Source: a virus | Virus record (IMG/VR): IMGVR_UViG_3300005337_000002 | Direction: 5' to 3' (one strand) | DNA length: 64,000 nt | Shown here: positions 293 to 58,608 of the stretch, in pieces | Numbering within the stretch: the stretch's first letter is position 1 | Layout: the number at the start of each line of letters is the position of its first letter | Notes under the pieces: generated by a model | The model's database searches: none | What the model saw: the letters and a program-made list of their open reading frames with translations, nothing else | What the model was told of the DNA's origin: nothing | Made by a program: the position numbers and the translations under genes

Positions 293-1165
293 TCAAGCGC
301 CCACATAGGCTTTGACTATTTCCAGTCGGCAATGACCAAGTTCTTCGGACAGAATCGACCGCGCATCCTGGTCCCGCTCTCGCTGCTCTGGGGTCAAGTC
401 CCTATGGCTTGGCCCGCCCGCCACTGGACACAGAAACCCCGTCAACTCCAGAAACCGCCGCTGGGCATACGCATGCCGCAGGCCGTGCATATTGTGCAGC
501 CCCACGCGCTTCACCCAGTCGTCATAGCGGTAGCGTTGTTGGATATACGTGCGATGCGTGGGGATGAGCGACGCCTCCTTGCTCGGGAGCGTTTGCTTGA
601 GCCGGTCGAGGACCTCGCGTTGCGCGGCGGTCGCAATGGGAATCTGGCGCGGGCGTCCGCCCTTGGTCCACGAGCCTTGCAGCACCAGGTACTGCCCCTG
701 ATCCGCCTGCCACAGGCGTATCTTGATGCTCTCCTCCCGGCGCAACCCAAAGGCCCGTTGGAGTTCGAGGGAGGCTCGCACCCAGCGATCCTGTACGCGC
801 ATGAGGACATCATTCGGGACCGTCTGCGCTTTCGAGGTCTTGGCCACGAACTGCCGCGGGGGCAGGGCATAGATCGCGTTGTCTTTGGGCAGGATACTCA
901 CCCGATTGATCTTGTGTGCCCACCAGCGGAGAACGCTCAAGCGGTTGCGAATGGTGGCGCCGCTCAAGCCTTGCGTGTGCCAGAGCGCGAGGAGCTTGTC
1001 GATATGCCGGCCCTTGAGGTCCGTGGCGTGCAAGTCTTTATAGCCAAGGTGGATCAGTTGGTCGGCCATCTGCGCCAGGATCGTGCGCCGATTGGCCTGG
1101 GTCATGAAGGAACCATCGCGGTTGCGCTTGGTGAGTTGGACGAGTTCGTAGGTGAGTTGCTTCAT
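293..1165 (-). CDS. int: Tyrosine recombinase/integrase (small Integrase_1-like type)
   Basis: Catalytic set FGLRREE (R), TKGG (K), HGLRH (HxxR), LGH, KAYVG (Y); 290 aa. Confidence 0.93.
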   Translation of the reverse strand: MKQLTYELVQLTKRNRDGSFMTQANRRTILAQMADQLIHLGYKDLHATDLKGRHIDKLLALWHTQGLSGATIRNRLSVLRWWAHKINRVSILPKDNAIYALPPRQFVAKTSKAQTVPNDVLMRVQDRWVRASLELQRAFGLRREESIKIRLWQADQGQYLVLQGSWTKGGRPRQIPIATAAQREVLDRLKQTLPSKEASLIPTHRTYIQQRYRYDDWVKRVGLHNMHGLRHAYAQRRFLELTGFLCPVAGGPSHRDLTPEQRERDQDARSILSEELGHCRLEIVKAYVGA

Positions 1166-4774: not shown

Positions 4775-6886
4775 TCACGCGTCCTCCTTGCTCGGGGGCG
4801 CGCCTAGGGGCAGCGCGGAGAGCTGGCCCGCGGTCGTCCCGTAGCCGGTGTCGGCCAGCGCGGTCAGGCTGTGCCCAAACGGGCCCCCCGCCGTCGTACG
4901 ATAATGGAGACCGCCGCGCTGGCCCGTCCCGACGATATCGGCATACGGCGGGGAACTCACCGCACAATCGAGCTGGCCTGGGGGCATCGCGGCGAGTTGG
5001 CCCGGGGACGATCCATACCCGCGCGGGTGGTTGATTTGGGAATTTTTCCCAGTGGTGCCGCCAGACCGGCGCGGGCGAGAGGTGCGCTGTCTGCGGTCGG
5101 CAATCGACGTCCTCTCGTCTTGCCCATGGAAACTCTCGGCATAGGGCGGTGAGCTGATCGTGCACGCACACCCCTGGAGGAGCGGCAACTGTTGCCAGGC
5201 GTCCTCGGGCGGCAGGGGCGCGGGCTTGCGCATGCAATAGACCGTCTCCCATGCAATCGCGAGGTCCGGACGCTTCCGTTCATGCAGGCGGCGGAAGAAG
5301 GAGATGCGCTTGGTCTGGAGTGTCTCGGTCGAGGGCGTCGGGGTATAGCGCCCGGTGGTGTGGAGCGGCGCGCAGAGACTGTCGCCCTCAGCGTCGGTCC
5401 AGTGCATATCCGCGCCGTCCTGGGAAAAGAGCGTCTCCTGCGTGCCGTACTCCTCGGTCAGCACGGCGTGGTGCTCGTGGAGGGTCTCGAACCCGACACT
5501 TTCAGCGGCGAGGCGCCAGTCGCCAGGAAAATCGACGATGGTCCCGTCACGACAATAGCCTTTGACCACCCACAGCGCGTGGCCGCCTGGCCGCACGACG
5601 GCAAAGGTTTGCCGCAGAATCTGCACCGCTGCAGACCAAAAGGTGGTCGGCGCTGCGGTGCCGAGCTGCCCCGGACTGGCCCCATATGTCTGTGCCGCTA
5701 TGCCCCCGACGCCATGCGTGCCAAACGCGGCTTGCTGCGTGCGGTCGCGGCGGCCCCCGTCCACCTTCGACCAGTCAATCGCATCCCGCGTGTCATTGAG
5801 ACTGGCCGCGTAGGGAGGTGAGGACACGAGGCAGTCGGCCACCGGCATGGTTCCTAACTGCCCCGGCGAGTCGGGATAGTGATAATCCCCTTTGTTGCGG
5901 TCAGCACTTTGGCCAGTGGCGCGTGTCCCAGCACCAGCGCCGAGCTTTGTTGGCTTGGTATCCGTATTAGAAAAGGGGGGAGATGAGATCAGGCAGTCGG
6001 CCACTTCGCCCGTCGCCATGTTCCCGAGTTGCGCCGGATCACTGCCGTAGTACGGGTCCACGATGCCCTTGTCGTGCATGATGCCACGGTGACTATCCTT
6101 GTCGCGCTTGGCGTGGTCGGCGTAGGTATGTTCTTTGCCAAGGCCGTGGGCATAGGGCGGACTACTCACGCAGGCCGCAACCTGCCCGGCCAGCACCTTC
6201 TCCAACTCCCGACTATCGCCTCGCAGCAGCACGGCGCCCGTGTGGCCCTGCGCCGCCCAGGTCTCCAGATTGCCCTGGTAGTGATGCGGCCCACTCGACG
6301 GAATCGTGCCGCTGTTGTGGGCATAGCTCGTCGTCGTCACGGCAAAGAGCGTCGCCACCGGGCCATGGGGCGGTGGACGCACGCCATCCTGCCGATCTGG
6401 CAACGGCAGCGGCAGAAACGGCACGGTCCGCTGCCGCACGCGCTGGCCCGGTTTGGGCCGCGTCCGAAAGGTGCGGCGCCGGGCCACGGGCAGGCCGGTG
6501 CGCTGGGACGCCTGGGTCAGACAGCGCGGACACCAGTAGTGACCGTCTGCATAGCGCAGGCGTGTCCAGCGGCCATAGCAGCGCACCCAGTCCGCCTTGG
6601 TGATGCCGGTACAGTCACAGCCGGTGCCGAGATCATTGAAGGGTTGCTCCAACTCCACGCCGATCCAGCGACAGCCGAGGGCCATGGCATCCCAGGCGCC
6701 GAGGCCGACCCCCCCGAAGGGGTCAACAATGGTCGATCCCGGGGCAAGCCAGCCTTCGGCCGCCGCATGCGCATAGATGTGCTGAATGAGCGCCCGTGAG
6801 AATTTCGCCGGGTGCCCGAAGGCTTCTGGGACAATGTGCTGCCAACTGCTGCTGTACAACGATCGCCACACCGTTACGTCAACCAT
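4775..6886 (-). CDS. Amino (N4-C/N6-A) DNA methyltransferase with five SPP(Y/F) modules
   Basis: HPAKF, motif I DPFGGVG, GVELE, five SSPP(Y/F) motifs, downstream VVRPGG strand. Confidence 0.85.
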   Translation of the reverse strand: MVDVTVWRSLYSSSWQHIVPEAFGHPAKFSRALIQHIYAHAAAEGWLAPGSTIVDPFGGVGLGAWDAMALGCRWIGVELEQPFNDLGTGCDCTGITKADWVRCYGRWTRLRYADGHYWCPRCLTQASQRTGLPVARRRTFRTRPKPGQRVRQRTVPFLPLPLPDRQDGVRPPPHGPVATLFAVTTTSYAHNSGTIPSSGPHHYQGNLETWAAQGHTGAVLLRGDSRELEKVLAGQVAACVSSPPYAHGLGKEHTYADHAKRDKDSHRGIMHDKGIVDPYYGSDPAQLGNMATGEVADCLISSPPFSNTDTKPTKLGAGAGTRATGQSADRNKGDYHYPDSPGQLGTMPVADCLVSSPPYAASLNDTRDAIDWSKVDGGRRDRTQQAAFGTHGVGGIAAQTYGASPGQLGTAAPTTFWSAAVQILRQTFAVVRPGGHALWVVKGYCRDGTIVDFPGDWRLAAESVGFETLHEHHAVLTEEYGTQETLFSQDGADMHWTDAEGDSLCAPLHTTGRYTPTPSTETLQTKRISFFRRLHERKRPDLAIAWETVYCMRKPAPLPPEDAWQQLPLLQGCACTISSPPYAESFHGQDERTSIADRRQRTSRPRRSGGTTGKNSQINHPRGYGSSPGQLAAMPPGQLDCAVSSPPYADIVGTGQRGGLHYRTTAGGPFGHSLTALADTGYGTTAGQLSALPLGAPPSKEDA

Positions 6887-7524
6887 GAGGACGCCTCCAT
6901 GCGTGGCAGACGACGTGCACCACGAGGAGCCGGACGTTTGCCGCGACAGTTATGTCCGACCAGAAAGCGGCGCGGGCGCCCTTTTTTATCGTACTGTGCC
7001 AAAGGAGTCGCGCAACCACATGCACACAGGATGAGAGGATTCTCTGCTCCCACGCGACGCGTGTTGGGATTGTTGCCATGCTGTTGTGCATGGAGGGCTC
7101 TATCGACCACTTCTAAATTGTCAGGGCTATTATTCTGTTTGTTCTGATCTTTATGATGCACACATTCATTGCGACGCAGCGGCCGTCCGAGCATCGCTGT
7201 AACGACAACAATATGTTCCAAGACCCAGCCATTCGATGTGGCATGAGGATGTGATGGGCATTTAATCCGTACATAGCCATATGCGGTGATATGGCGCGTG
7301 CTGCTTTGCGCTCGTTGACATGTTTTTGAGCAGAAAAAGCGGCGGGATGCCCGTCGTCGCACGCGTGTACCGCACGTGCGACAGGGAAATTCTTCCACAT
7401 ACGATTCTTGAACAAAACGCCCCGTCGCATCTCTTGTACGCCCTGTCCATACATCGACCGCAGGTCCTCTGCCCACCCCATGATTTTCCTTCTTGGGTTC
7501 TTGCATATGAGCGAAATTCTCCAT
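6874..7524 (-). CDS. HNH (homing) endonuclease
   Basis: EHIVV..MLGRPL..NECVHHKDQNKQNNSPDNL; Cys-rich zinc motifs. Confidence 0.85.
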   Translation of the reverse strand: MENFAHMQEPKKENHGVGRGPAVDVWTGRTRDATGRFVQESYVEEFPCRTCGTRVRRRASRRFFCSKTCQRAQSSTRHITAYGYVRIKCPSHPHATSNGWVLEHIVVVTAMLGRPLRRNECVHHKDQNKQNNSPDNLEVVDRALHAQQHGNNPNTRRVGAENPLILCACGCATPLAQYDKKGRPRRFLVGHNCRGKRPAPRGARRLPRMEASSWLT

Positions 7525-11807: not shown

Positions 11808-12335
11808 TCATAGCGAGTCTTCCTCCTGCTGCTGTGCTTCTACCTGCTCGCGCGCTACCATCCTATTCCCTAGGTGCCACCAGGAACAAAATCGACAGTG
11901 ATAGGCTTGTAGCGCTGTCCCATCCCAGGCATCCGGGGCACGTAGGATCGCCACACGAGCCGTGAGGGCGGCATTGCGGTGCTTGTAGCGCACCTTGCCA
12001 TGACAGACGTTGGCGATGTTACGCTGGCGTCCTGCGGCATAGAGCGACGGCAACTCCTTGCTGAGTCGTGCCCGCTCCCTGGGGGTCGCCAGCTGGCGCA
12101 CCAGAAAGAAAAAGACGCCGCCGGGCGTCCGACGCCGGGCCCCACTCGCGATGCGCATGCCGCCGTTCTGTTCGATCCGCAACGTCTCTTGCAAGATCGT
12201 CCAGCACCGCTGATGACCCAACGCACGCCAGACGTCCGTCAGGGCCGCCTGATTGGACTCCTGTAAGATCCTGGCGAGGATCGGCACGCTGAGGTGGGGG
12301 AGAGAGGACGGCTCTTGCACAACGGGTAACATCAC
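11808..12335 (-). CDS. PHAX RNA-binding-domain protein with C-terminal Cys/His motif
   Basis: ETLRIEQNGGMRIASGARRRTPGGVFFFLVR is the PHAX signature; YHCRFCSWWHL tail. Confidence 0.75.
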   Translation of the reverse strand: MMLPVVQEPSSLPHLSVPILARILQESNQAALTDVWRALGHQRCWTILQETLRIEQNGGMRIASGARRRTPGGVFFFLVRQLATPRERARLSKELPSLYAAGRQRNIANVCHGKVRYKHRNAALTARVAILRAPDAWDGTALQAYHCRFCSWWHLGNRMVAREQVEAQQQEEDSL

Positions 12336-42264: not shown

Positions 42265-44148
42265 TCACCGCATGCTCACGCGGTGGCGGCGCACCGTGGC
42301 ACTCTGGCGGTAGTCCGTCAGAATCTCGGCGGCACTCCAGACGCGATTATCCAGACGAAAGTCATCGACGCTGCCGGGGTCATAGTACGTGCCGGATTCA
42401 TTCACCCAGCGGCCGACGTCAAAGACCGTCAGATCGACGGTCGGGGCGGTCGAGGACGGCGCCGACGCCACAAGCGCGCCGTTCGCATAGATCGCCCGCA
42501 CGCTACTGGTTGCCCCGCTGGAGACGAGCGCGAACCGCACCCATCGCCCGAGATAGGGTGTACAGTCCACGCTCACGCGCCCGACGGTATGCCAGTCGCC
42601 GTAGTCCCAGTAGCAGACATTGTCGCTGTACGGGAGATGCGCGCCAAACCGGTCCTGCACCGCGGCGCTATGCGCGCCAAAGGCCCCGGTGACGCCCCCG
42701 GCGGTCACTTTGCGCCACAGGAGCACGGTGACGGGCTGCCCCGCTGTCCACACCATCGTGGCAGTGGTCACGTACTGCGCCACGCCGTTCATCGTCACGG
42801 CGCCGGTCCCGACGCGCCCCGGTCCCCAGAGCGGACCCCCCGCGAGCGTGCCGGTATAGCCATTGCCCGTCGCATCGGCCACGGTCGTCCCCGTGCCCTC
42901 ATCGAATTTCCACCGCAGCGCTTGTGGGCCGGTCGTCACGACGCCGCTGCCATACTCTTCCGCCCCGAGGTCATAGGCCGCGCCCTGGGGCCGTGCGATC
43001 CCGCGCCGATCGGTCGGCACGGCGGCGAGCGTGACGCCCGCATCAATGGCCGGGCTGCCCGCCTGGAGGCGAAAGTCGCCGGCAGCCGCATTGACAAAGA
43101 GGGGATCGCCCGTGAGCAGATTATGATCCCGGATCGTGCCGGTGGCCCCGTCATCTTGAATGGTGTCCGCGTTCCCCGTCAGGATATTGTTCTGAATTTT
43201 GGTATTCGTATTGCCGACGTTGATTTCAATCGCCGCGCTCTGCGGGTTCTGGGTAATGGTATTGTTATAGACGCGATTATTATCCACCCCAAAGCCGCCG
43301 GTGCCCGGACTGATACTCACGACGGCTCCATTGCCAATGCAGAGATTATTCGAAAAGATATTGTTCGCGAGGAGATTATTCCCGCCATTCATAATGATGA
43401 CATTGAGCCCTTGCCCCCGCGTGCCGTCATTAAAGCAATTCTCGTGAAACAGGTTATTGGTGACGACGGCATTTTCCACCCCACCCCCGCTGAGATAGAG
43501 ATGGATCGCATAGCCATAGTTGTCATAAAACTCGTTGCCATCCATCGTCATATTCGTCCCGTTACAGTAGCAGCCATACTGGCCCGGAATGCCGTTTGGA
43601 TCGCCGACATAATTGAGATCGAGCCGCGCCCCGTGGATCTTATTGCCCACGAGGCGGACATGATCGGTATAGCGGGCGATGCCCACCGTCGCGAAATCGC
43701 CCCCCGTAAAGTTGCTGTTGCTGACGGTAATATGGTGGCTATTGATCGAGATTTCCAGATGGGGCGAGGTCAAGTTATCCAGCGTGAGATATTGCGGGAT
43801 GCTGGCATCAAAGTTGTCCTGGATATTGATCTGGTTGGGGATCACCACCGTTTCGCCGGGATACCCCGCGATGGTGATGCGCGTACTCTCATTCGTGCCG
43901 CTGGGGAGGCGAAAGCCCACGGGACTAAAGAGTTCATTATAGGTCCCACCCCGAATGAGCAGCGTATCGCCCGGTGTCAGGCACGCGACCCCAGCGGCAA
44001 TCGTGCGCCGGGGCGTGGTCAGTTGGGTGGCCGCCGCACAGCTATTGCCGGCGGCGACGGCCCCATCAACATAATAGATCGTGGCGTGGGCAGGCCCCCA
44101 CCAGAGACCGCAGAGGAGGACGACCAGGAGCATGCGAGGGTGTCTCAT
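42265..44148 (-). CDS. Secreted beta-helix plus LamG protein (depolymerase/adhesin-like)
   Basis: Signal peptide AHA; TIYYVD; beta-helix repeats; DFRLQAGSPAIDAG; WKFDEGTG...LamG. Confidence 0.85.
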   Translation of the reverse strand: MRHPRMLLVVLLCGLWWGPAHATIYYVDGAVAAGNSCAAATQLTTPRRTIAAGVACLTPGDTLLIRGGTYNELFSPVGFRLPSGTNESTRITIAGYPGETVVIPNQINIQDNFDASIPQYLTLDNLTSPHLEISINSHHITVSNSNFTGGDFATVGIARYTDHVRLVGNKIHGARLDLNYVGDPNGIPGQYGCYCNGTNMTMDGNEFYDNYGYAIHLYLSGGGVENAVVTNNLFHENCFNDGTRGQGLNVIIMNGGNNLLANNIFSNNLCIGNGAVVSISPGTGGFGVDNNRVYNNTITQNPQSAAIEINVGNTNTKIQNNILTGNADTIQDDGATGTIRDHNLLTGDPLFVNAAAGDFRLQAGSPAIDAGVTLAAVPTDRRGIARPQGAAYDLGAEEYGSGVVTTGPQALRWKFDEGTGTTVADATGNGYTGTLAGGPLWGPGRVGTGAVTMNGVAQYVTTATMVWTAGQPVTVLLWRKVTAGGVTGAFGAHSAAVQDRFGAHLPYSDNVCYWDYGDWHTVGRVSVDCTPYLGRWVRFALVSSGATSSVRAIYANGALVASAPSSTAPTVDLTVFDVGRWVNESGTYYDPGSVDDFRLDNRVWSAAEILTDYRQSATVRRHRVSMR

Positions 44149-45569
44149 TGGAGGACTCCCTTGATCTTCACCTGGACAAACTTGGCCGTGCCCCCGGCTG
44201 CCGTAATGTTGACGGCCAGATCGCACGGCGTACTACTACACGTGGCCCCCGTCCCGCTAAAAGGGTGCACCAGTGGACTGCCGTTGACCGTACACGCCGC
44301 CCAGATACCCGTGCCGCACGTACAGGCCCCCGTGAGAATCGAGGTACCCGTGATGTCCCCGGTCAGGATGGGGCGCACGGTGGGCGTGCCCGCGTCGGCC
44401 ATACAGGCGACCGTCGTGATTTTCCAGTCTTTTTCAAAGTCGTTCGGACAGGCGCGGGGCGAATCCTCATCATCGGCCAGCGGCGGGGCATCGACACTCA
44501 CCGAGCCGACGCTAATGACGCAGGGCTTGATCTTGTACTTGTCGGGGATCCCGATACTCCAGGCCTTCCAGCGCGTCGCGGTCGCATCATAGATGATCGC
44601 CAGCGTCTCGCCCGGGAAGAGGGTCAGGTCCCCCCCGAAGAGGAAGCGATTCACGGCCGAGGAGCTGGCACTCTGGTCTTTGAGGGTGAGGGCATTGGTC
44701 GTGCCCACGTTCTGGAGCGCAATGATATCACCGCCTGTCCCCGCGGTCAGGCCGGTGAGCAGTCGATCCGCTGCGCCTCCATTGATGCGACAGACGCCAG
44801 TGGTACACAAGGCGTAATCATTGGCATCGCCTGCCAGGGTCGCGGTCGTCGCGGTGCCGGTCACTGCGAGTTGCGGGGGCAGGTCCGCTTTGACCGGGGC
44901 GCGAAACGTCGGGGCTGCAGCACTGCCCGAGGCCGGTCCCGCATAATGGGTATTGGCCGTTTGCGTGGCTTTGACCCAGGCAATGGTGCCCGCGGTCGTG
45001 ATCGGCGAGCCGGTGACGGTATACTCGGTCGGCGGCGTGATCGTCACACTCGTGACGGTGCCGGTGCCTGCGCCACTGCCGGGGACATAGGCAATAATCT
45101 TGGTATCAATCAGGGCCAGACTGCCTGCCGTCGTCGCATTGTCGTCCATTTGCCCGATGACAATGCCGTTACTGGGGGCAGCGGCTTGCGCGTGGCAGTC
45201 CCCCGCCACCGTGACCGACGCGACGACATACTGGCCGCGCACGTTACTCGCGGTGGCGTCCATGCGGCAACTGGTCACGCCGCTCAGATTGAGCATGGCA
45301 TAGCCGGTCGTGGTCCCGTTGCGCGTGACCACATAGAGCGGGATATTCGTATCGCCCGTGCCGGCGATCACCGCCCCCGTCGAGGTGATCTTCGCGAGGG
45401 ACCAGAGGGTCGTTCCGGTGCTGGGGTCATTGAGCACGGCCTTGACGGTATTGGTGCCGCGCGACGCTTCCTGCGCATCGACGCCCGGGAGCAGCGTGGC
45501 GAGGGCGAGCATGAGCAGCAGGAGGCGCAGGGTCGGGGAGCGGAGCAGATGGGCGAGTCGTGCCAACAT
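44145..45569 (-). CDS. Secreted, Cys-rich tail-fibre-like protein
   Basis: Signal peptide VDA; GTVTSV and AGP.SG..AAPTFR fibre motifs; many Cys. Confidence 0.75.
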   Translation of the reverse strand: MLARLAHLLRSPTLRLLLLMLALATLLPGVDAQEASRGTNTVKAVLNDPSTGTTLWSLAKITSTGAVIAGTGDTNIPLYVVTRNGTTTGYAMLNLSGVTSCRMDATASNVRGQYVVASVTVAGDCHAQAAAPSNGIVIGQMDDNATTAGSLALIDTKIIAYVPGSGAGTGTVTSVTITPPTEYTVTGSPITTAGTIAWVKATQTANTHYAGPASGSAAAPTFRAPVKADLPPQLAVTGTATTATLAGDANDYALCTTGVCRINGGAADRLLTGLTAGTGGDIIALQNVGTTNALTLKDQSASSSAVNRFLFGGDLTLFPGETLAIIYDATATRWKAWSIGIPDKYKIKPCVISVGSVSVDAPPLADDEDSPRACPNDFEKDWKITTVACMADAGTPTVRPILTGDITGTSILTGACTCGTGIWAACTVNGSPLVHPFSGTGATCSSTPCDLAVNITAAGGTAKFVQVKIKGVLQ

Positions 45570-45607
45570 ACGTATCCTTTCGGCGGCGTCTAGACCGCGG
45601 TGACGTG

Positions 45608-46495
45608 TCAGTGCATAAACTGGAAAAACCCAGCGGTATTGCTGCCGCCCACATTGATGAGCGGGCCGCGATTGAGCAGCCCGGTATCGCCCTGGCGTCC
45701 GAGGCTATAGAGGGCGGCCACGTCGAGCGCGCTCAGCGCCCGCAGATAGAGCCGCGCGTCATCGAGCGCCCCGTCCCAGGTATTCGAACTGCCATCAAAG
45801 GACCCGAGGGCCGCGAGATTGGCGCCCGCGAGGAACGTATTCGCGCTGTCCATATCCGACGCGGTCCCTTCCTGCTTGCCATCGAGATAGAGCGTGACGA
45901 CCGTGCCATTCAGGACGAGCGCGCCATGATGCCAGCCGGTATCGAGCGCCGTTGCGCCGGTGAGCAGCGTGTTACTGTTTGATACATTGCGGTACCGCCC
46001 CTCCAGCATGCCGCCCGTGCCGCTCGTCTGCAGCGCCCAGCCGAGGGAGCCGGTCGAGCGCTGGAAGGAGAAGAGGCGCAGCTGGGCCGCCGCGAGGGCC
46101 GCCGTCGTCGGCTTGAGCCAGATGGTCGCCGTGAGGGTCGTCTGCGTGCTCGCGTAGAAGTCCGACGTGAGCCCGACATCGACGTAGGTCGTCACGCCAT
46201 CGAACCGGAGTTCGCCAAAGCCCCCGGTGCGCACGGTCGCCCCCCAGGTCGCGCCATTCGTCAACGTGCCGTGGTGGGTGCTCATGAGGTCATACCACTG
46301 GCGTCCGCCGTCGAGGCCCGGAATGGCCCGCCACATGCTCACGAGGCCCCAGGCGAGGGGATGCTCGCGCTGCACGGGGGCATGCGTACTGATGAGGCCC
46401 AGGCCCCCGACATGCGCAAAGGGCGAGAGTTGGGCCTGGCAGGGGAGGACGCTCGCGCAGAGGAGAGCGATGAGGAGCAACAGACGCAGGATCAT
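45608..46495 (-). CDS. Secreted LamG/ConA-like lectin domain protein
   Basis: Signal peptide; L.FDG...WHH.ALV.....LYLDG...G.LDD.RLY.RALS. Confidence 0.85.
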   Translation of the reverse strand: MILRLLLLIALLCASVLPCQAQLSPFAHVGGLGLISTHAPVQREHPLAWGLVSMWRAIPGLDGGRQWYDLMSTHHGTLTNGATWGATVRTGGFGELRFDGVTTYVDVGLTSDFYASTQTTLTATIWLKPTTAALAAAQLRLFSFQRSTGSLGWALQTSGTGGMLEGRYRNVSNSNTLLTGATALDTGWHHGALVLNGTVVTLYLDGKQEGTASDMDSANTFLAGANLAALGSFDGSSNTWDGALDDARLYLRALSALDVAALYSLGRQGDTGLLNRGPLINVGGSNTAGFFQFMH

Positions 46496-47004
46496 TGCGC
46501 AATGCCCTCGATAGTAACTGGCCTAATTTTAATAGTATTACCAGAGGCCGCCAACGTCTGTCCGGTGGAGTCGTTCTTTGCGACCGCCTTAAACAAGCCC
46601 CAGGGACAGAGAATGCGCCGGGTGACCCGCGTCCCTGTTTGCCCGGCGGTCACGGGGAGGACGACGTCGGGGGCCCGGCCCAGGGTGATCGAGGCGGTCG
46701 GCGTATCTTCGTAGTTCGTGCCGTCCGCCGCCATGAGGAACCAGACGACGACGGCCGTATTGGCGGTGGGATTGGCCCCGAAGGTAAAGACGCCCTCGAC
46801 ATCGCAGAGGACATAGCCGTCGCCCGCTTGGAGCGGCGTATTATTGAAGGCGGCACTGGCGGCGGTGAATCCGTTACTGGTTAGTGAGTTCAGTTGCGTC
46901 GTCAGGAGACTCGTCTGGCTCCCGAGCAGAAACTTGGTCACAATCGCGGCGTGGGCAAGACTTGCTATCCCAAGGATGAGCACAAGACTGAGCAGACGTC
47001 TCAT
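46492..47004 (-). CDS. Secreted phage structural-type beta protein
   Basis: Signal peptide AHA; LNSL...DGTNYED motif seen in phage late proteins. Confidence 0.65.
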   Translation of the reverse strand: MRRLLSLVLILGIASLAHAAIVTKFLLGSQTSLLTTQLNSLTSNGFTAASAAFNNTPLQAGDGYVLCDVEGVFTFGANPTANTAVVVWFLMAADGTNYEDTPTASITLGRAPDVVLPVTAGQTGTRVTRRILCPWGLFKAVAKNDSTGQTLAASGNTIKIRPVTIEGIAQ

Positions 47005-47543
47005 GTGGCGTCCCTCGCGGTAGAAATATCATCCAGCGTCAGCTTGCGCCCGCAGACCACCTCGGCCCGGGACCCCTGCCGCTTGACCATCGCAATGAGC
47101 GCCGTGCGGGTGGCACTGGGATTGGCAAAGATGCCGACAATCGGGGGACTGCCGCCTGCGCCGACGAGGATGGCGCGAATATTCGCTTTACTGAGATCCA
47201 CCGTCGTCGTGCCGAGAATGGTGTTCAGTTGCGCGAGTTGATGATCCGAGAGCGCCAGATACTCGGCGGGGTCGAGCACGGTGGCCTTCAGGTCGGCGAC
47301 GGCGACGGGGGCAGGATCGACCTGGTAGGTGGCACCGCTGCGCACCTGGTTCATGACGGTGAGGACATCGGCATCCTTGCCTGCGGCAAAGAGGTTTTGG
47401 AGACTGACCGACTGGCTGTCGGCGAGATTGGCCGGGTTCGTCTGCAATTCCGTTTTCAAATCCGACGGGGTGCAGACTGCCCCGGCGATGAGGGGACAGA
47501 GCATGAGGAGCAGGGCTGCTCCGAGGCGTGTTACGACAAGCAT
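47001..47543 (-). CDS. Secreted phage late protein
   Basis: Signal peptide AGA; LKTELQTNP...SRAEV. Confidence 0.65.
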   Translation of the reverse strand: MLVVTRLGAALLLMLCPLIAGAVCTPSDLKTELQTNPANLADSQSVSLQNLFAAGKDADVLTVMNQVRSGATYQVDPAPVAVADLKATVLDPAEYLALSDHQLAQLNTILGTTTVDLSKANIRAILVGAGGSPPIVGIFANPSATRTALIAMVKRQGSRAEVVCGRKLTLDDISTARDAT

Positions 47544-47571
47544 TGTGCGTACTCCTGTGCTATACTTAGCA

Positions 47572-47628
47572 GGCTTGGTTGCCTTGCTAGCGTAATCCTG
47601 TTTGGCCTTACCCAGACAGGTCCAAGCC
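47572..47628 (+). ncRNA. c4-like three-way-junction leader RNA
   Basis: ggcttgg/ccaagcc outer stem; loop ccttac complementary to gtaagg in the SD; extended -10 TGcTATACT. Confidence 0.55.
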
Positions 47629-47659
47629 ATCCATCCTTCTGAGCCTGTAAGGAGGCGGC

Positions 47660-48319
47660 ATGACTGCCCATAATTTCATTGATTTGACTGAACAACTCTT
47701 TGATCGATTGACCGTCTTGAGCCGTGCGGCCAATGGGAGTGATGGTCGGACACGTTGGATGTGTCAATGCAGCTGCGGTGCTCTGCGCGTTGTCGATGCG
47801 AAGGCTTTGCGCCGACGTGCAACCAAAAGCTGCGGATGTTTTAAGATTGAGGAGAATACGCAACGTAGTCGAACGCATGGCATGGCACACACTGCGGAAT
47901 ACTTTGTATGGAAAAACATGAAGGCACGATGCTTGAACCCGCGCAGCTCGCGTTATGCAGATTACGGTGGTCGCGGGATTACTATCTGTGCACGATGGCA
48001 AGACTCGTTCGTCAATTTTTATGAAGATATGGGGCCTCGCCCAGGGCCGAAATACACTATCGAGAGAGTGCGAAACTCGGAAGGGTATGCGCCAGACAAT
48101 TGCATCTGGGCAACATTGTCTGTGCAAGCACGTAATAAACGCACGAGCCTTTCTTTCACCTTGAATGATATTACGCAATCGCTGCTGGAGTGGGCGCAAA
48201 GCATCGGAATGAACTATCACACGTTGTATTATCGCTTGCAGTGTGGACTGTCTCTTGAAGAGGCTATGGCTCGGCCATTGCAGATACATAAAAATAATAT
48301 ACATAAACATATAGAATAA
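47660..48319 (+). CDS. HNH-type homing endonuclease inserted antisense in the late operon
   Basis: W.C.CSCG...SCGC; W..MK.RC...YGGRGI.IC.RW; TIER..N..GY.PDNC.WAT...QARN. Confidence 0.88.
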   Translation: MTAHNFIDLTEQLFDRLTVLSRAANGSDGRTRWMCQCSCGALRVVDAKALRRRATKSCGCFKIEENTQRSRTHGMAHTAEYFVWKNMKARCLNPRSSRYADYGGRGITICARWQDSFVNFYEDMGPRPGPKYTIERVRNSEGYAPDNCIWATLSVQARNKRTSLSFTLNDITQSLLEWAQSIGMNYHTLYYRLQCGLSLEEAMARPLQIHKNNIHKHIE

Positions 48320-48326
48320 TCCTAAA

Positions 48327-50693
48327 CTAATTAGTAGCATACGCTTGCCATTTGGAGAGCACTGTGGAATAGACCACGCCAATTGCTGTCCAGGCGGATG
48401 TTCCGCTTGGGCATACCGTGGGCAGGCCGACGTTCGGGCTCGCAATAAAAATACTATTCCAAGCAAACGTCTGTTGGGACGTGCAGAGGAACCGCAGAAA
48501 CAGGCGTTGGCCATTGACGGGCGTGCCTGAGGGGGCGGCCACCGTGAGCGTCCCACTGCCAGCGGTCATCTGCATCTCGCAGTCGTCGGACGAGTCTCCC
48601 GCACAGGTGTACGTGGTGCTGCTTGTCAAGGTCGTGACTCTGGGCGTGATCCTCTTCGCAGACAGCGTCTGCGTATCCGTATCTCCGACGACCGCCCCGC
48701 TCGGTGCCGCGACGACGTTGAGCGTGCCATCCCCGCCCGACGTCTTCACCAGGCCGTTACTTGTCAGATTCGCGAGTTTGGCAATCGTGGGGGTGGTGAG
48801 CGTCGGACTCGTGGCCTTGACGTAGTTGCCCGTCCCAGTCACCGCAACGCCCTGAATGACCGTTGCGGACGTCCACTCTGCCGCTTGCCCGCTGGTCGGC
48901 GTGCCCGTGTTCGACACATTGCCCCCGCCTGCCGGCGTCTGCCACGTCCCATCGCCGCGCCAGAAGGTGGACGATGACGCGGACGTGCCGCTATTCAGAT
49001 TCGCCACCGGCAGATTCCCCGTGACCCCGGTACTCAGGGGCAACCCGGTCGCATTGGTCAGGACCGCCGCACTCGGCGTGCCCAGCGCGGGCGTGACGAG
49101 GGTGGGACTCGTCGCCTTGACGTAGTTGCCGGTGCCTGTCACGGCCACCCCTTGGACGGCCGTCGCGCTGACCCATTCCGTCGACTGTCCCGCGACAGGC
49201 GTGCCCGAGATCGTAATGGTCCCCCCGCCCCCGCAGGACGTGACGGTGCACAGCGCCCCATCGCTATCGGGCAGCGTGTTGAAGTGATGGGCGCTCAAAT
49301 TGCCCGCCATGAGCGTGCTGGTCCAGCCATGCGGGTCCGTCAGTTCCACGAGGCCGCTGCCCTGGCCGTGCGTCATTTCCTGGATCGTGCCGACATGGTT
49401 GCCCGGATCATAGAGAAAGCGGCCGGTGTCCACGTCCCACGTCGTGCCTTCGCCGTGAAACGCCACGTCCTTGTAGGCCCCCGTGGCCAGCGCCGCCCCG
49501 CCCCCGCCGCCCCCCGCCAGCGTGGCAATCAGTTGCGAGTTGAAAATGATCTGCCAGGTCGAGGTGGTCGAGTCGTACTCAAAGAGCAGGAGATCATCTT
49601 TATTCAGCCCGGTCGTCGCGGCCGGCAAGTCCCAGCCGGCATTCTCGCTATACTGCGGTTGCCAGGTGAGCGGCTGAGGCGTGGCACTGCGCAGGCGCAA
49701 GCGATACCACTGCCCGGCCCGCGCCGTGCCCAACGGGTTGAGGATGAGCGCGCCCGTCGTCATGGCCGTCACGCGCTCCAGGTCATACAGCACGGGATTG
49801 GGCTGAATCGTGCCGCTGGTGGTGCTGGGATCGGCCAGCGTATTGACGCGCGGCGGGACAAACGTCTGCTCCAGCGTCTGCGGGCCATCCGTCCCGGCCA
49901 GATTGCCCGCGGGCAACGGCACGGTGGTGACGGCGGCGAGCCCCCCGCTGGTCGTGGCGTAGAGGACGCCCGAGGGCAACACCCCGAGATTCACGCCGAC
50001 CGGGAACTGGCTATTACTTTGCGCGAGGAGCGGCTTGGCGACGGATTGGGCGATGGCTGGCACATCGCAGATGAGGACGCCCGTGGCCGTCACGCCTTTG
50101 GCATAGGTCCCTGCGAGTTGACAGGTATTGCCCACATAGGCCGCAAAAAGCCCCGTGCCATCCGCGGCCTGGAGCGTGCCAGCCCCGCCGAGCGGGAGGC
50201 GCTGCCAGGTGCCCGCCACGGTCGACGTCGTGATCGGCACTTGATTGGTGGCCGTGGCAGTGCTCATCGTCACATTGCCGAGCGAGCCACTGCCGCCCGT
50301 GCCCCCGCTCAGCCCCTCGACCTGGAACGTGGTACCGTCGTCGCAGGCTTCGACCCGCTGGCCGATGCCGATGTCATTGGCGACGAGCGGGGTCGCCACG
50401 CCCGCCACGCGCTTCATCAGGGCCTTCGCCCCGCGCCCGTTGACGTTGAGGGTCGCCGGGCCGGTGTTGGCGGCATGCGCGAAGAACGCATAGCAGGCGC
50501 CGACATGGTAGGACAGAATCGCTGGGGTGAGGGTGATCGCATACGTATTCGTTGCGCCCGTTGAGGTCGTGGCGGTATTAAACCATCCATAGATCGTGCG
50601 CGGTCCGGCAATGGGATTCTGACTATAGCTCGCTGTCACCGCGCACAGGAGGAGCCCTATACTGAGGAGGATGCCTCTTAGGCTCTGTCGCAT
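48327..50693 (-). CDS. Tail-fibre-like protein with signal peptide
   Basis: G/T-rich fibre motifs ([25 protein letters not shown]), internal duplications, N-terminal signal peptide. Confidence 0.8.
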
Positions 50694-52198
50694 GGCGGTG
50701 CCTCCGTGCGTCCGAGCGTCGCTTCCAGTGCTTCGACACGCGCATGCAGTTCTTTGAGGCCGTTCATGAGCGTATACACGAGCGTCCCGCTCCCTTCATT
50801 CGTCAGAATATCTTCGACCGCGCCGCCTGGCGTGAGAGCACGCCGTGCTCTTCCCACCATCGTCGGGGCCACCTGTTGCAGTGCTTGTGCAATCAACCCG
50901 ACATGCTCTTTGCCGTCCTTGGGCATGCCGCCGAGCCCGTTATAGGCAAAGACGACGGGCTCTAGGCGCAGGAGGAGGTCTAAGCCTTCCAGATACGGAC
51001 GTCGGACCTCTTTCAAACGGGCGTCAGAAAATATCGTCCAAGCACTCGTTCCAGGTTTACTAGCACTATCGGTACTCAACTCCAGCTGGTGGGAGGGCGA
51101 CGTCACGCCCAGCCCCAACTGTCCTGCCGTGGTCAGGGTGGCGAGGATGGCGCTCAGGGCATTGCGCAGATACACATGCCCGCCTGCGCCCATTTGCAGC
51201 GAGAGATCCCCCGCCCGGGAATAGACGCTGGTGGCCGTCTGATTGACCACGCCCCCGTCGCGAATCGTAAAGTCCGTACCGCTAAAGTCCGCCACACTGC
51301 CGAGCACGAGGCGCCCGCTGGTGGGATCGCTAAAGGTGGCGACGACATCATAGGTCGTGGGATGGACCGTGAGCGTGTTCGGGGCCAGCGCCGTGCGCGG
51401 CGTACTCGCATCCCACACGCCCCAGAGCAGTGCCCGGGTGCCCAGGCCATGCGTGCTCCCGGCCACGGTCACGGTCATCTGGCTCGTGAAACTCGCGGCA
51501 TATTGCGGGTCCGATTTCGTCAACACCAGATACCCCGTCATGGGATCGCTAAAGGTGACGACGACGTCAAACGTGCTCGGATGCACCGTGATACTATCGG
51601 GGGCAAAGACCGCACTGCCGAGAATCTGGCCCGCCGGTTGCGTATTGTCATAGAGGCGCCAGAGGAGGTCGGCCGTCGCAAAGCCATGCGCGCTCCCGAG
51701 CACGGTGACCGTGGTGGCGGCCGTGAAGTCCCGAATGTAGGGCGCCGCCCCACTGAGGACCAGACTGCCACTTAGGGGGTCCGCAAACTGCGCCAGGACG
51801 TCATACGTACTCTGATCCACCGTGAGGGCCGCCGGCTCCACGGCGGCGGCAGGCACGGCATCGGTATAGAGTTGCGCCAGGAGTCCCCGTGTGCCGAGCC
51901 GATGGGTCGTGCCGCCGACGTACACGCTAATACGATTGACAAAGTCGATGAGACTTGCCGCACTGCCAATGCCGGGGAGAAACTGGTTCAAGCGGGCGGC
52001 GACGCTGCCGAGGCTCCCCTGCGGTTGCGCGCCGAGACAGGTCTCGATGGAGAGGATCGCCGCTAGTATATCATTGACTAATTCAGAGTCGATGCGACTA
52101 TTAGAATCAGGCGCAGCAGGAGTACCATTGACATACGTTTGTGCGGTGTCAATCCCTGCTGAGTAACTGGTCCCGAAACCCGCCCCCAATTGGCTCAC
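50678..52198 (-). CDS. Tail fibre with three ~75-aa repeats and a C-terminal peptidase S74 chaperone
   Basis: SDARLKE...L.PV.F.YNG...VGLIAQ...KEL..RVE.LE. Confidence 0.88.
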
Positions 52199-52395
52199 AT
52201 TAGCGGTCCTCACGGGTATCAGGGTGATCGTGCATATATTGCCGCACCGCTTGGCGGATGGCCTGCTGCGTGAGGACGGGCAAACTCAGTTGTGTCCGGA
52301 GCGCGTTGATCTGCGTGAGCAGTACGTCAAAGACCATGCGCTCACGTGGGGCTAGGACGGTTGTTGGATCAACGCGATGGTCGAGTCTCGGCATC

Positions 52396-52828: not shown

Positions 52829-55800
52829 TCACCTCTGCAGCCGCAACGCGATAAAGCTGACATCCGACACACTGAGGCCCCCCGAGCCCAGCGTCTGGTT
52901 CAGCGTCAGGTAAAAGCTCTTCCCACTGAGGGCGGAGGGCACCTGATAGAAGGCGTTCAGGGCGATACTGGTGGCGGTGCCGGCATCGGACTGGGCCGTA
53001 CTGTTCAGGATGTTGCCGCTGAGATTATTTTCCCGAATGCGCACGGTCATCGTCTGCCCGACGCCGCTACTGCCGATGCCCTGGGCCAGAAACAGCACGA
53101 CATCGCCCGGATTGAGCAGCGTGAAGGTCAGGCTCGCGACGACAGTTTCCGTCCCGCTACTCGAAATGATCGAGGCCGAGCTATAGAGGAGCGATTCCGA
53201 GACGGCGGCCAGCCCGATCTTGGGCGTGGTAATCGCGTACTCATCGACCTTGGGGGTCGTGACGGCGAGGGTCCCGATGCCGTGACTCGTGGCCCCGCTG
53301 TTGAAGTCCCACATGAGTTGGCCATCCCAACTCCAGATTTGCATCCCGTAGTCGATATTGGTCGCGCCGATCTTGCCGAGATAGACCCGTGCCGCGGGCG
53401 TATTCTGATTATCAAAGATCGTTATTAAATGGTTCGGGCCGTCGAGCGTAATGGCATCCCCGCCGACCCCGATGCTATAGACCGCCTGCAGGGCCCCGGC
53501 CGTGATTTTGGGGGCACTCAAGGTGAGAATTTTGGCATCCTCAATCAGCGCATTGGCAATCTGCGCTCCGACTGTAATGACCGCAAACTCCGTCTGGAGA
53601 TGGGCGGCCTCGATGCTCCCGGCCCGAATATGGCGCGCGACGACGGCCGCATCGCTAATGCCGGCCGTCTGCGCCCCATCGGTAAAATTCCACATGAGCA
53701 CGCCGTTCGCATCAAAGATCTGCATGCCGTAGGCCGTATTGAGCGTCCCCAGCTTCCCCAGGTAGACGCGGGGCACCGGCACATTCTGGCTATCGAAGAT
53801 GGTGATGAGATTATTCACCCCATCGAGCACGATATTGTTGACGCCGAGGCGCACCAAGGCTTGAATGGTCCCCGCCGTAATCTTCGTGGCAATCAGACTG
53901 CTGATAAACGTGCTGTCGAGCTGGCCGGCCGTCCCGGCGACGCCCGCAATCGCGGACGCGGGCTGAAAGGCCGCCGAGCCATTTCCCGACGTATCGACCG
54001 CGCGGAGCCAGTAATAGCGGGTGTCGTTCGGCCCGAGCCCGTCATGAATAAAATTACTCTCCCCGGTGCCAATGCGGGTCGCGCTGGCGCGGTTGTTCAC
54101 GGGCGCCGACCAGATCTCACTATAGGCATAGTCCCCGTCCGGCGGCGGCGTCCAGAGCAGCGCAATCGAGCGAATACTGCCCACGGCCAGCAGGTTCGTC
54201 GGGGCCGCAGGCGGCGTCGTATCCTTGGCGGAGATGATGGACACGTCGGCACTATAGCCGGAGACATTGTGGAATTTGTCAAACGTGAGGAGGCGCACCA
54301 TGACGGGCGTATTGCCGGGCACCGGAATATGAATGAGGTGCTGCCGCCGCTCCGGATTGTAGACGGTGGGGCTCGTGCTCGTATTGAGATAGACATGCAC
54401 CTCATAGCCGGCCACATCGCTTTCCATCGCCAGGTCCCAACTTGCCTCGACCCAACTCATCGTCGTGCCATCGGAACTCAGGTCCACGCCTGTCGTGAGC
54501 GCGAGCCCGGTCGGGTCGGCGGGCGGCGTGCTATCAAAGGAATCCGCCGTGATCCCGGCAGGCACAAAGCTGGCCGTATGCGTGGGAATGCCCGGCCCAA
54601 AACTATCGTAGGGCAAGATATACGTGTAATACGTCGCGCCGACCTGGAGCCCGCTCACAAAGATTTTGCTAAAGGCTTTCGCTTCCGCCACCGAAAAGGC
54701 ACTGAGATTGTCATAGATGGCAATCGGGGGATCCATGAGGTCGAGGTGAATCTCATAATGGTCAAAGTCGCGCGGTTGCACAAACTGCGAAAAATCAATA
54801 ATGACAAAGAGAAATGGCACGATTTCGGGGATCATGTCGCCCATGTCGGGCGGCGGATTATTCGCCTTGAGGATCGCCGGATCGAGGGAGATGCGATTGG
54901 TGTTGGTGCGAGCCCAGACGAAAAACCACATATCCCGGCGCGCCCCGCCCATCCCGGCCCGCGCCTGATCTTCGGCATTTTGCTCCAGCGTATAGGTCCA
55001 CTGAATCGCGACGCCCGGGGAGCCCGCCAGCACCGTGGTGCGCCGCATGAGGTATTGCTGCCCCGGCGCCCAGACCTCGACAATATAGTCCTGCACAAAA
55101 TAGGTTTGCGTAAAGAGCGGGCTATCGGCGACCGGGAGCCATTCGATATGGACATCACGCCCCTCAAAGTCCGTCACCCCCACCGCCTGGCCTTTGAGCC
55201 GCAACTGTTGCACCGTGCCCGGAAAAAAGTCGGGGGTCGTCGGCCCGGCGACGTGGATCATGGCTTCGCGCGCCCCGGTATTATTCGGCGTGCCGCCCTG
55301 GGAGATCGGCACGACGCGGTACACATAGGTCGTGCCGGTGAGCACGGTATAGTCATCGTAGTCGAGGACATGGCCCCGCAACTGGATGAGGGGAATAAAA
55401 TTGACGTTCGCATCGCTCGGGTCTTGGATCGCGCCAAAGTTGATGATGCCCGCTTGCGCGACGCCGGCCCCACTACTTTCGAGGACGGCCCGCCGCAGGA
55501 TGAGTGCCCCACCATACGGGCCAAAGCCCGCCGAGAGGGCCGCCACATCCCACGAGAGGTTGACCACGCGCAGACTCGCCCCGCTGGCTTGAATCCGCGT
55601 CACTTCGGTGAGGATGAGCGAGGTAATGGGCGGGGCGGGGCCGGCTGGGTTAAAGAGATTCGAGATGACGGGGAGACTCGTGGCCGTCGCCTCGTCATAG
55701 ATCGAGGGATTGTGGATGATCCCCTGGATATGGACCGTGGTATCGGATTTCCGCTGGAGGGCCGTGACGCGAAACACCTTCACGGCGGTGTCCACGGGCG

Positions 55801-58222: not shown

Positions 58223-58608
58223 GTGAGCGGCCTCCAGCGGGCGACTTGGAGGAGGCGCGGGCGCCAATGCCGACAGCGCTCCAGACTGACGCCGCCCGTG
58301 TGTTCGCGGGCATGCACAAACAGGCCGCCGTCCAGCATGACGCCGACATGCCGCGCAAAGGGCAGCGTCTCGACCTTGGCGAGGATGTAGAGATCCCAGG
58401 GGCGCAGGAGCGGGAGCGGATCCGTCGCGGTGGTGTGCCACCACACTTCGACAAACTCCTCCGCGGCCGTCAGTTGATCCGTCGCGAGGTCAATGCCAAA
58501 GCCGTCCTTGTAGAGCAGGCGCACCAGATCCCAGCAGTCCGCGTGGGCGTAGGGCAGGCCCAGGTAGCGGTCGGCAATCGTGCGGGGATCGGGGATGGTC
58601 GTCAGCAT
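58219..58608 (-). CDS. NlpC/P60 tail tip protein (gpK-like)
   Basis: YLGLPY..ADCW.LV...HVGV.....FVHA. Confidence 0.85.
   Translation of the reverse strand: MLTTIPDPRTIADRYLGLPYAHADCWDLVRLLYKDGFGIDLATDQLTAAEEFVEVWWHTTATDPLPLLRPWDLYILAKVETLPFARHVGVMLDGGLFVHAREHTGGVSLERCRHWRPRLLQVARWRPLT

Follow-up and report, generated by a model that had tools for sequence, protein, structure and literature searches.

How can a methyltransferase with a single S-adenosylmethionine (SAM)-binding motif make use of five catalytic motifs? The question is raised by a gene at positions 4775–6886 of the IMG/VR virus record IMGVR_UViG_3300005337_000002, of which a stretch of 64,000 nucleotides (nt), hereafter the window, was analyzed. 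The gene lies on the minus strand, as do all of its parts mentioned below, and its open reading frame translates into a methyltransferase-like protein of 703 amino acids (aa), P0001. A GGAGG Shine–Dalgarno sequence (6894–6898, same strand) is located 7 nt 5′ of the ATG at 6886. Judging from its sequence, the gene product is most likely an orphan, phage-borne amino-methyltransferase that acts on DNA at N4-cytosine or N6-adenine. With a probability of roughly 45%, we take it to be a multispecific anti-restriction methyltransferase, in which any one of the repeated cassettes would complete the one active site and the loop of that cassette would set the target. We favor this reading because there is only one SAM-binding half and because the loops behave like the specificity determinants of Type I S subunits and multispecific C5 methyltransferases, in that they show conservation, lack of redundancy, portability, and fast exchange.

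The architecture is directly apparent from the translation. The sequence-only reading of this locus had claimed one motif I and five units with the tetrapeptide SPP(Y/F), and both counts were confirmed, with matching nt positions. Motif I occurs as a single copy, DPFGGVG (aa 55–61, nt 6704–6724), and represents the sole SAM-binding element. SPP[YF] is found at aa 242, 302, 356, 579, and 645 (nt 6152–6163, 5972–5983, 5810–5821, 5141–5152, and 4943–4954). The composition of P0001 predicts 0.018 such motifs, and three or more were present in 0 of 100,000 shuffled sequences. Each unit consists of a hydrophobic lead-in strand to SSPP(Y/F), an unrelated loop of 31–40 aa, and the element Y-G-x-x-P-G-Q-L. 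Three units lie inside the fold, between β3/αC and αD, and two beyond the last core strand, which is the arrangement previously described. A fusion of two domains was considered and excluded, as a single motif I serves five SPP(Y/F) motifs and the model contains one Rossmann core.

From the N-terminus, the protein starts with motifs X, I, and II (aa 15–81, 6644–6844), represented by HPAKF, DPFGGVG, and GVELE. This part is supported by the PF01555 match, the match of the family profile to TTHA0409 residues 193–274, and a predicted local distance difference test (pLDDT) score above 90. GVELE (aa 76–80) provides the acidic residue after β2, and D55, F57, G59, E78, and E80 are invariant among 30 aligned sequences. 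A zinc-ribbon-like insert (aa 84–215, 6242–6637; homologue consensus GCDCTG…WCPxC) is placed between β2 and β3. It corresponds to the Cys-containing insertion after GVELE that had been noticed before, is modeled with confidence (pLDDT mostly >84), and carries the cysteines C90, C92, C119, and C122 in a GCDC…CPRC pattern. The insert is conserved in many homologues and entirely missing from others. Strand β3 and helix αC, AVLLRGDSRELEKVL (aa 218–232, 6191–6235), align with LHVGDARE of TTHA0409, contain the invariant residues G223, D224, and S225, and lead into cassette 1.

Cassette 1 (aa 236–288, 6023–6181) comprises VAACVSSPPY, a 34-aa loop of type T4, and YYGSDPAQLG. In cassette 2 (aa 295–345, 5852–6004), VADCLISSPPF is followed by a 31-aa loop of type T8 and HYPDSPGQLG. 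Cassette 3 (aa 349–409, 5660–5842), with VADCLVSSPPY, a 40-aa loop of type T12, and YGASPGQLG, joins αD directly. The C-terminal half of the Rossmann fold (aa 410–556, 5219–5659; pLDDT mostly >90) includes the TFW helix, the PGGHALWVV strand, SFFRRL, and CMRKP. Behind the fold, cassette 4 (aa 573–632, 4991–5170) carries CACTISSPPY, a basic 40-aa loop of type T25, and YGSSPGQLA. The C-terminal cassette 5 (aa 639–690, 4817–4972) consists of LDCAVSSPPY, a 32-aa untyped loop, and YGTTAGQLS, and is followed by a 13-aa tail.

Motifs, fold, and profile matches probably place P0001 in the PF01555 superfamily, and its core is a permuted relative of the β-class N4/N6 methyltransferases. The PF01555 profile scored 25.6 bits with P0001 (gathering score 26.7, E 1.4e-5), covering only model positions 152–213 of 221, and matched 30 of 30 scanned relatives at E ≤ 1e-3 (best 4.7e-15). 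The Pfam model misses the family except for the SAM-binding third of the protein, and the matches of NCBIfam and PADLOC profiles were restricted to the same third. The family profile matched solved β-class N4/N6 enzymes, namely TTHA0409 of Thermus thermophilus (E 2.6e-14; PDB 2zie, 2zif, and 2zig), CcrM, M.PvuII, rotifer N4CMT, DpnA, M.MboIIA, and M.RsrI. The match with TTHA0409 came in three pieces, in which profile positions 5–91, 185–211, and 367–436 corresponded to residues 193–274, 24–51, and 54–130, respectively. Because the order of these pieces is changed, we conclude that the family is a circular permutation with motif I ahead of motif IV. This succession is that of class α (PMC7544214). 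The β-class order (IV…I) does not apply to P0001, where motif I (aa 55) precedes all copies of motif IV (aa 242 onward), and the protein therefore stands outside the β class.

Family members share with TTHA0409 and the β-class enzymes the class I Rossmann fold and the motifs HPAxF, DPFxGxG, GxELE, GD…SPPY, and Y..PGQLG, the latter followed by a helix and the PGG strand. The lead-in to motif IV aligned with GDARE…VTSPPYW of TTHA0409 and, including its LPxGxxD, with LPEKSVDLIFADPPY of CcrM. The YG..GQLG element and the helix following cassette 3 aligned with TTHA0409 residues 54–130. Apart from the permuted order, the family differs in having the β4/motif IV unit 2–10 times instead of once, and in the zinc-ribbon insert of many members. 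The gap between SPPYW and RYEDTPGQLG amounts to ~3 residues in TTHA0409, compared to 24–45 aa between the equivalent elements of the family.

In AlphaFold2 models, the core reached pLDDT values above 90 at aa 1–235 and 410–560. VIA-align of model residues 6–558 revealed a class I Rossmann fold with a Z score of 15.5 and a root-mean-square deviation of 2.2–2.7 over 163–165 residues of Trm11 and Trm14. The best neighbors among solved structures were Trm11, Trm14, and TrmN (Z 14.5–15.5), which are (D/N)PPY amino-methyltransferases. A Foldseek search of the model against the PDB gave no match at E ≤ 0.001, and the structure search of BFVD returned generic methylases only, so that the fold was recovered by VIA-align alone. 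The proximity to the Trm enzymes speaks for a substrate other than DNA, either an RNA amino group of the N2-methylguanosine (m2G) type or a protein glutamine, with the cassettes adapting the enzyme to several targets. The weak PF01170 (UPF0020) match in 3 of 30 members and the Gln of PGQLG, which is conserved in every unit, point in the same direction. The relatives detected by sequence, however, are all DNA N4/N6 methyltransferases, and PGQLG is also present in TTHA0409, a single-copy protein of the DNA methyltransferase type. Neither THUMP nor any other RNA-binding domain was found in P0001 with Pfam at E ≤ 1, and the fold match concerns the Rossmann domain alone. Evasion of restriction, moreover, is the better fit for a phage orphan with fast cassette turnover. 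We consider a non-DNA substrate improbable and infer methyl transfer to DNA. The motif SPPY is more typical of N4-cytosine enzymes, and the solved relatives matched by the family profile include both N4-cytosine and N6-adenine enzymes. PF00145, the family of C5-cytosine methyltransferases, did not match P0001 at E ≤ 1.

The five copies in P0001 are old. DNA repeats between the units span no more than 31 nt (81% identity), and the serine pairs of SSPP are encoded in the five copies by AGT AGT, TCA TCT, TCC TCA, AGC TCA, and AGT TCC. Since AGY and TCN serine codons differ among the copies, SSPP has been kept at the protein level. An assembly artefact, which the sequence-only reading had already regarded as unlikely, and recent gene conversion are dismissed because the serine codons differ and the DNA similarity is short; recent duplication and conversion within the gene are contradicted by the same codon evidence. 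The suggestion that the units form an intragenic recombinational reservoir found no support, as the DNA similarity among the units is limited to short, diverged stretches and exchange was seen between genomes, not among the copies.

Multiple copies are a trait of the family, as a count across homologues, proposed together with the original observation, revealed. A word-seeded search yielded at least 1496 relatives of P0001. A HMMER scan detected 2179 mostly viral clusters (50% identity) at E < 1e-3, 813 of them at E < 1e-30. In 216 relatives, 1–10 strict SPP[YFWH] motifs were counted per protein, most often 4 and usually 3–6, at a period of ~58 aa. The arrays in this set comprised 1–9 units before the core and 0–3 after it. 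The smallest complete members consist of 330–380 aa and have two units and no zinc ribbon.

The loops, defined as the segments between SPPx and the YG..GQL anchor, were sorted into types. For this purpose, 762 loops of at least 15 aa were clustered by BLAST and Louvain partitioning with self-chosen thresholds. Thirty-eight loop types with at least four members cover 464 of the 762 loops, and many rarer types exist besides; typed loops are 24–45 aa long. Within single proteins, one pair of the same type was observed, compared to 17.5 ± 4.2 pairs expected from 2000 shuffles (minimum 3). Every common type occurs as the first, a middle, and the last internal unit as well as in the C-terminal tail, and the first position hosts many different types. 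The T4 loop of P0001, for example, recurs in 24 proteins at varying array positions. The position of a cassette relative to the fold thus makes no difference to its loop type. The types are conserved between proteins with cores of ~40% identity, and the last residue of the tetrapeptide (Y, F, W, or H) tracks the loop type, with a within-type entropy of 0.38 bits versus 1.04 bits after shuffling.

Purifying selection acts on every copy. In the follow-on units, SPP[YFWH] is kept in 552 of 644 cases, and ~40 units deviate at one residue (for example, SSPY, SPVY, or SMPY). First, middle, last, and C-terminal units all show the same hydrophobic pattern in their lead-in strand. The conserved parts of the unit, that is, the LPxGxxD lead-in, the strand of buried type, the SPP-aromatic motif, and YG..PGQLG leading into αD, are those that a β4 strand with its catalytic loop needs. 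One might argue from their position in low-confidence regions of the model that the repeats have no function of their own, being neutral remnants of duplication in tandem or artefacts of assembly or annotation. We consider this hardly credible, as the same architecture is present in hundreds of independent assemblies, the loop types persist across strongly diverged cores and are non-redundant within a protein, and the catalytic tetrapeptide is maintained in spite of differing serine codon families; the high retention of the motif in follow-on units contradicts it as well. A number of proteins (P0009, P0032, P0049, P0053, P0105, P0149, and P0224) contain the recurrent single-residue tetrapeptide variants SSPY, SMPF/Y, SPVY, and SPSY in otherwise intact cassettes. 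Such units may be inactivated or have an altered chemistry.

The same data bear on the idea that the cassettes are peptides that bind other proteins or act as decoys, such as pseudo-active-site loops engaging host defence proteins, and that they are tethered to an independent or inactive core. Phage counter-defence genes often look like disordered, multivalent repeats with fast turnover, and the cassettes, predicted to be disordered, resemble them in all three respects. Decoys would not account for the nature of the conserved parts, though, which are the β4 lead-in of a methyltransferase, including the LPxGxxD that aligns with CcrM, motif IV, and the post-motif element. The SAM-binding residues are invariant, and none of the genes next to the methyltransferase is a conserved partner in the 21 loci compared. 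A decoy function is, in our view, very improbable.

Exchange of loops at the anchors was directly seen in closely related proteins, with the breakpoints mapped on protein sequences. Between P0001 and its closest relative, P0002, the identity amounts to 91–97% over the N-terminal half, the core behind the array (92%), cassette 4 (91%), and cassette 5 (97%), compared to only 29–45% in cassettes 1–3. P0002 has one tail cassette more. In three further close pairs, the identity drops directly past SSPP and recovers at YG..PGQLG. As the break lies just past SSPP, we conclude that the exchanged unit consists of the loop and the aromatic residue and does not include the strand. Among pairs with cores at least 80% identical, the mean overlap in loop types was 31%, and in 28% of these pairs no type was common to both proteins; reordering was also seen. 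In line with an exchange that leaves out the strand, the 7-aa lead-ins of one protein shared 38% identity, versus 29% among cassettes of one loop type in different proteins and (27.5 ± 0.5)% in shuffles. The lead-in strand thus follows the host protein and not the loop type. Swappable cassettes had been proposed for this locus, and the conserved types, their non-repetition, their independence of position, and the exchange at the SPP and YG..PGQLG anchors support swappable loops well. Multispecificity, the function suggested for them, would be a plausible consequence.

Structure prediction, which had been suggested as a check, gave a divided answer. The core was confidently placed and the cassettes were not. 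Two AlphaFold2 runs were conducted, one with an alignment of 121 sequences and one with 30 sequences that contain exactly three cassettes in the N-terminal array, with the units aligned one-to-one. In both runs every cassette had a pLDDT below 50 and none was placed, including cassette 1 despite its clean alignment with invariant columns. This outcome would fit a competition among equivalent cassettes and, equally well, plain disorder.

The modeled disorder of the later cassettes can also be taken to mean that only cassette 1 is catalytic and that the others are flexible accessory arms, which bind DNA or flipped bases and thereby contribute affinity, processivity, or breadth to an enzyme of single or relaxed specificity. 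The first SPP is indeed located at the canonical distance of 18–21 aa past GDSR in the 29 members checked (26 aa in one of them), and the loops abound in G, T, R, D, K, and H, the residues to be expected where nucleic acids are contacted. Accessory arms, however, would need neither a strand of buried type nor an intact SPP-aromatic motif, yet both are equally conserved in middle, last, and tail units. AlphaFold leaves cassette 1 unplaced too, and the first position is occupied by many loop types. A catalytic role restricted to cassette 1 seems rather unlikely to us.

In the multispecific reading, the multiplied element would comprise strand β4, the SPP(Y/F) catalytic loop, the variable loop, and the YG..PGQLG lead to αD, an element normally present once and here forming an array. 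Each cassette would be able to complete the single SAM-binding core with its own β4 and catalytic tetrapeptide, and the DNA context recognized would differ with its own 24–45-aa loop. In this way, a single polypeptide would gain several target specificities, by which the phage genome might be shielded from several host restriction systems, and phages could retune the repertoire through loop swaps at the conserved anchors. We infer that each cassette has one specificity and that the cassettes insert as alternatives into one common slot. The latter step, the weakest link of this reading, can be phrased as "alternate-frame folding": 2–10 tandem cassettes would compete for the β4/catalytic-loop slot, so that one polypeptide folds or re-folds into enzymes of different DNA specificities, and swaps of the 24–45-aa loops at the two anchors would reprogram the set. 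We put it forward tentatively and regard it as somewhat doubtful.

Several points weigh against the multispecific reading. To our knowledge, there is no natural precedent for a central β-strand that is exchanged among alternatives. As the first cassette is always found at the canonical distance from αC, it could be fixed and the others accessory. Likewise, RNA could be the substrate, since the closest solved folds are those of RNA m2G enzymes. The low pLDDT of all cassettes could simply reflect disorder, and the likeness of the strands within a protein could stem from recombination of loops only instead of fitting to a common slot. Finally, the repertoire statistics are based on related sequences and our own clustering thresholds, and the shuffles overstate the significance somewhat.

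Multispecific C5-cytosine methyltransferases are encoded by the Bacillus phages SPR, phi3T, rho11s, and H2, where they are phage-borne orphans with an anti-restriction rationale. These enzymes contain tandem modules of ~40–60 aa with conserved frames and variable cores, which are independently added, lost, or swapped. Only the target-recognition domains, located between motifs VIII and IX, are repeated, and there is a single catalytic PCQ motif. The family described here resembles them in this modular build and in the independent gain, loss, and exchange of modules among relatives. Like them, it is phage-borne and has no conserved neighboring endonuclease in the 21 loci. For the multispecific C5 enzymes, PMC7544214 refers to Walter et al., 1992 and Trautner et al., 1996. 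Our family differs in its PF01555-like core and in that each module brings its own catalytic tetrapeptide and β-strand. The parallel to the C5 enzymes drawn in the sequence-only reading thus holds in its logic but not for the repeated part, as those enzymes multiply recognition domains and not the catalytic motif.

Type I HsdS and Type III Mod proteins are part of restriction systems; each subunit contains one or two recognition domains, and the catalytic motifs are kept apart from these. As in their alleles, specificity-type segments of the present family are recombined at conserved flanks of near-identical genes. The differences are that P0001 is an orphan phage enzyme and that its catalytic motif is within the module. 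Fused double methyltransferases such as the MhoVII M1–M2 fusion (PMC12898733) likewise have more than one catalytic motif IV per polypeptide and possibly more than one activity. They contain, however, one motif I per motif IV, compared to a single motif I for five motifs IV in P0001. Full-text literature searches did not return a description of a methyltransferase with repeated motif IV. Among proteins shorter than 386 aa, a search for these loops retrieved nothing but fragments of the family itself, and it brought up no enzyme that combines one cassette and a known specificity with a loop type of the family.

If the multispecific reading is correct, multispecific methyltransferases of phages would have been invented a second time, independently, and on a principle different from that of the C5 enzymes, since the duplication includes part of the catalytic fold itself. 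This would account for the evasion of several restriction systems by many uncultured phages that carry just one small gene for it, and at least 38 portable loop types would form a ready library for reading or writing DNA methylation. Alternative insertion, if true, would be a new principle in itself and a natural case of one sequence taking several alternative active folds. Even on a modest reading, the proteins constitute a large, unnamed family of at least 2179 clusters that is nearly absent from reference genomes and cultured phages.

Full-length relatives are encoded on 26 IMG/VR viral contigs of 9–114 kb, and the Atlas clusters nearest to P0001 are 76–95% viral. No tblastn match was obtained in 50,697 records of cultured phages and 72,556 plasmids. 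A scan of the reference genomes with the P0001 sequence alone gave no match, and the scan with the family alignment retrieved a single fragment from GTDB species-representative genomes, on a 1-kb contig of a metagenome-assembled genome. As no neighboring gene is conserved across the 21 loci compared, we conclude that there is no partner subunit or endonuclease. Two members, P0066 (aa ~225–400) and P0205 (aa ~100–330), have 200-aa low-complexity or unrelated insertions that replace part of the array or the zinc ribbon. These could be frameshifted stretches or mobile insertions.

In the window, the methyltransferase gene adjoins a gene for an HNH_3 (PF13392) endonuclease of the homing-endonuclease type (6874–7524, minus strand, 216 aa), and its start overlaps the stop of this upstream gene by 13 nt. 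In the distant member P0016 (768 aa), HNH_3 and PF01555 occur within one protein. In view of this fusion and the adjoining gene, HNH elements seem to be repeatedly associated with the family.

Further genes of the window encode a J-like central tail fibre, tape-measure and tail-fibre proteins, an O-like replication initiator, and a small tyrosine-recombinase-like protein (293–1165, minus strand) with Phage_int_SAM_2 and Integrase_1 domains. The central tail fibre of 1871 aa (52829–58444, minus strand) has extra C-terminal fibre domains and is followed by several fibre-like genes (42265–52213, minus strand), resulting in an unusually large host-recognition block. A 175-aa protein encoded at 11808–12335 (minus strand) matches the eukaryotic PHAX RNA-binding domain PF10258 with E 1.1e-19 and 70.5 bits (cut-off 25), a family unexpected in the early region of a phage.

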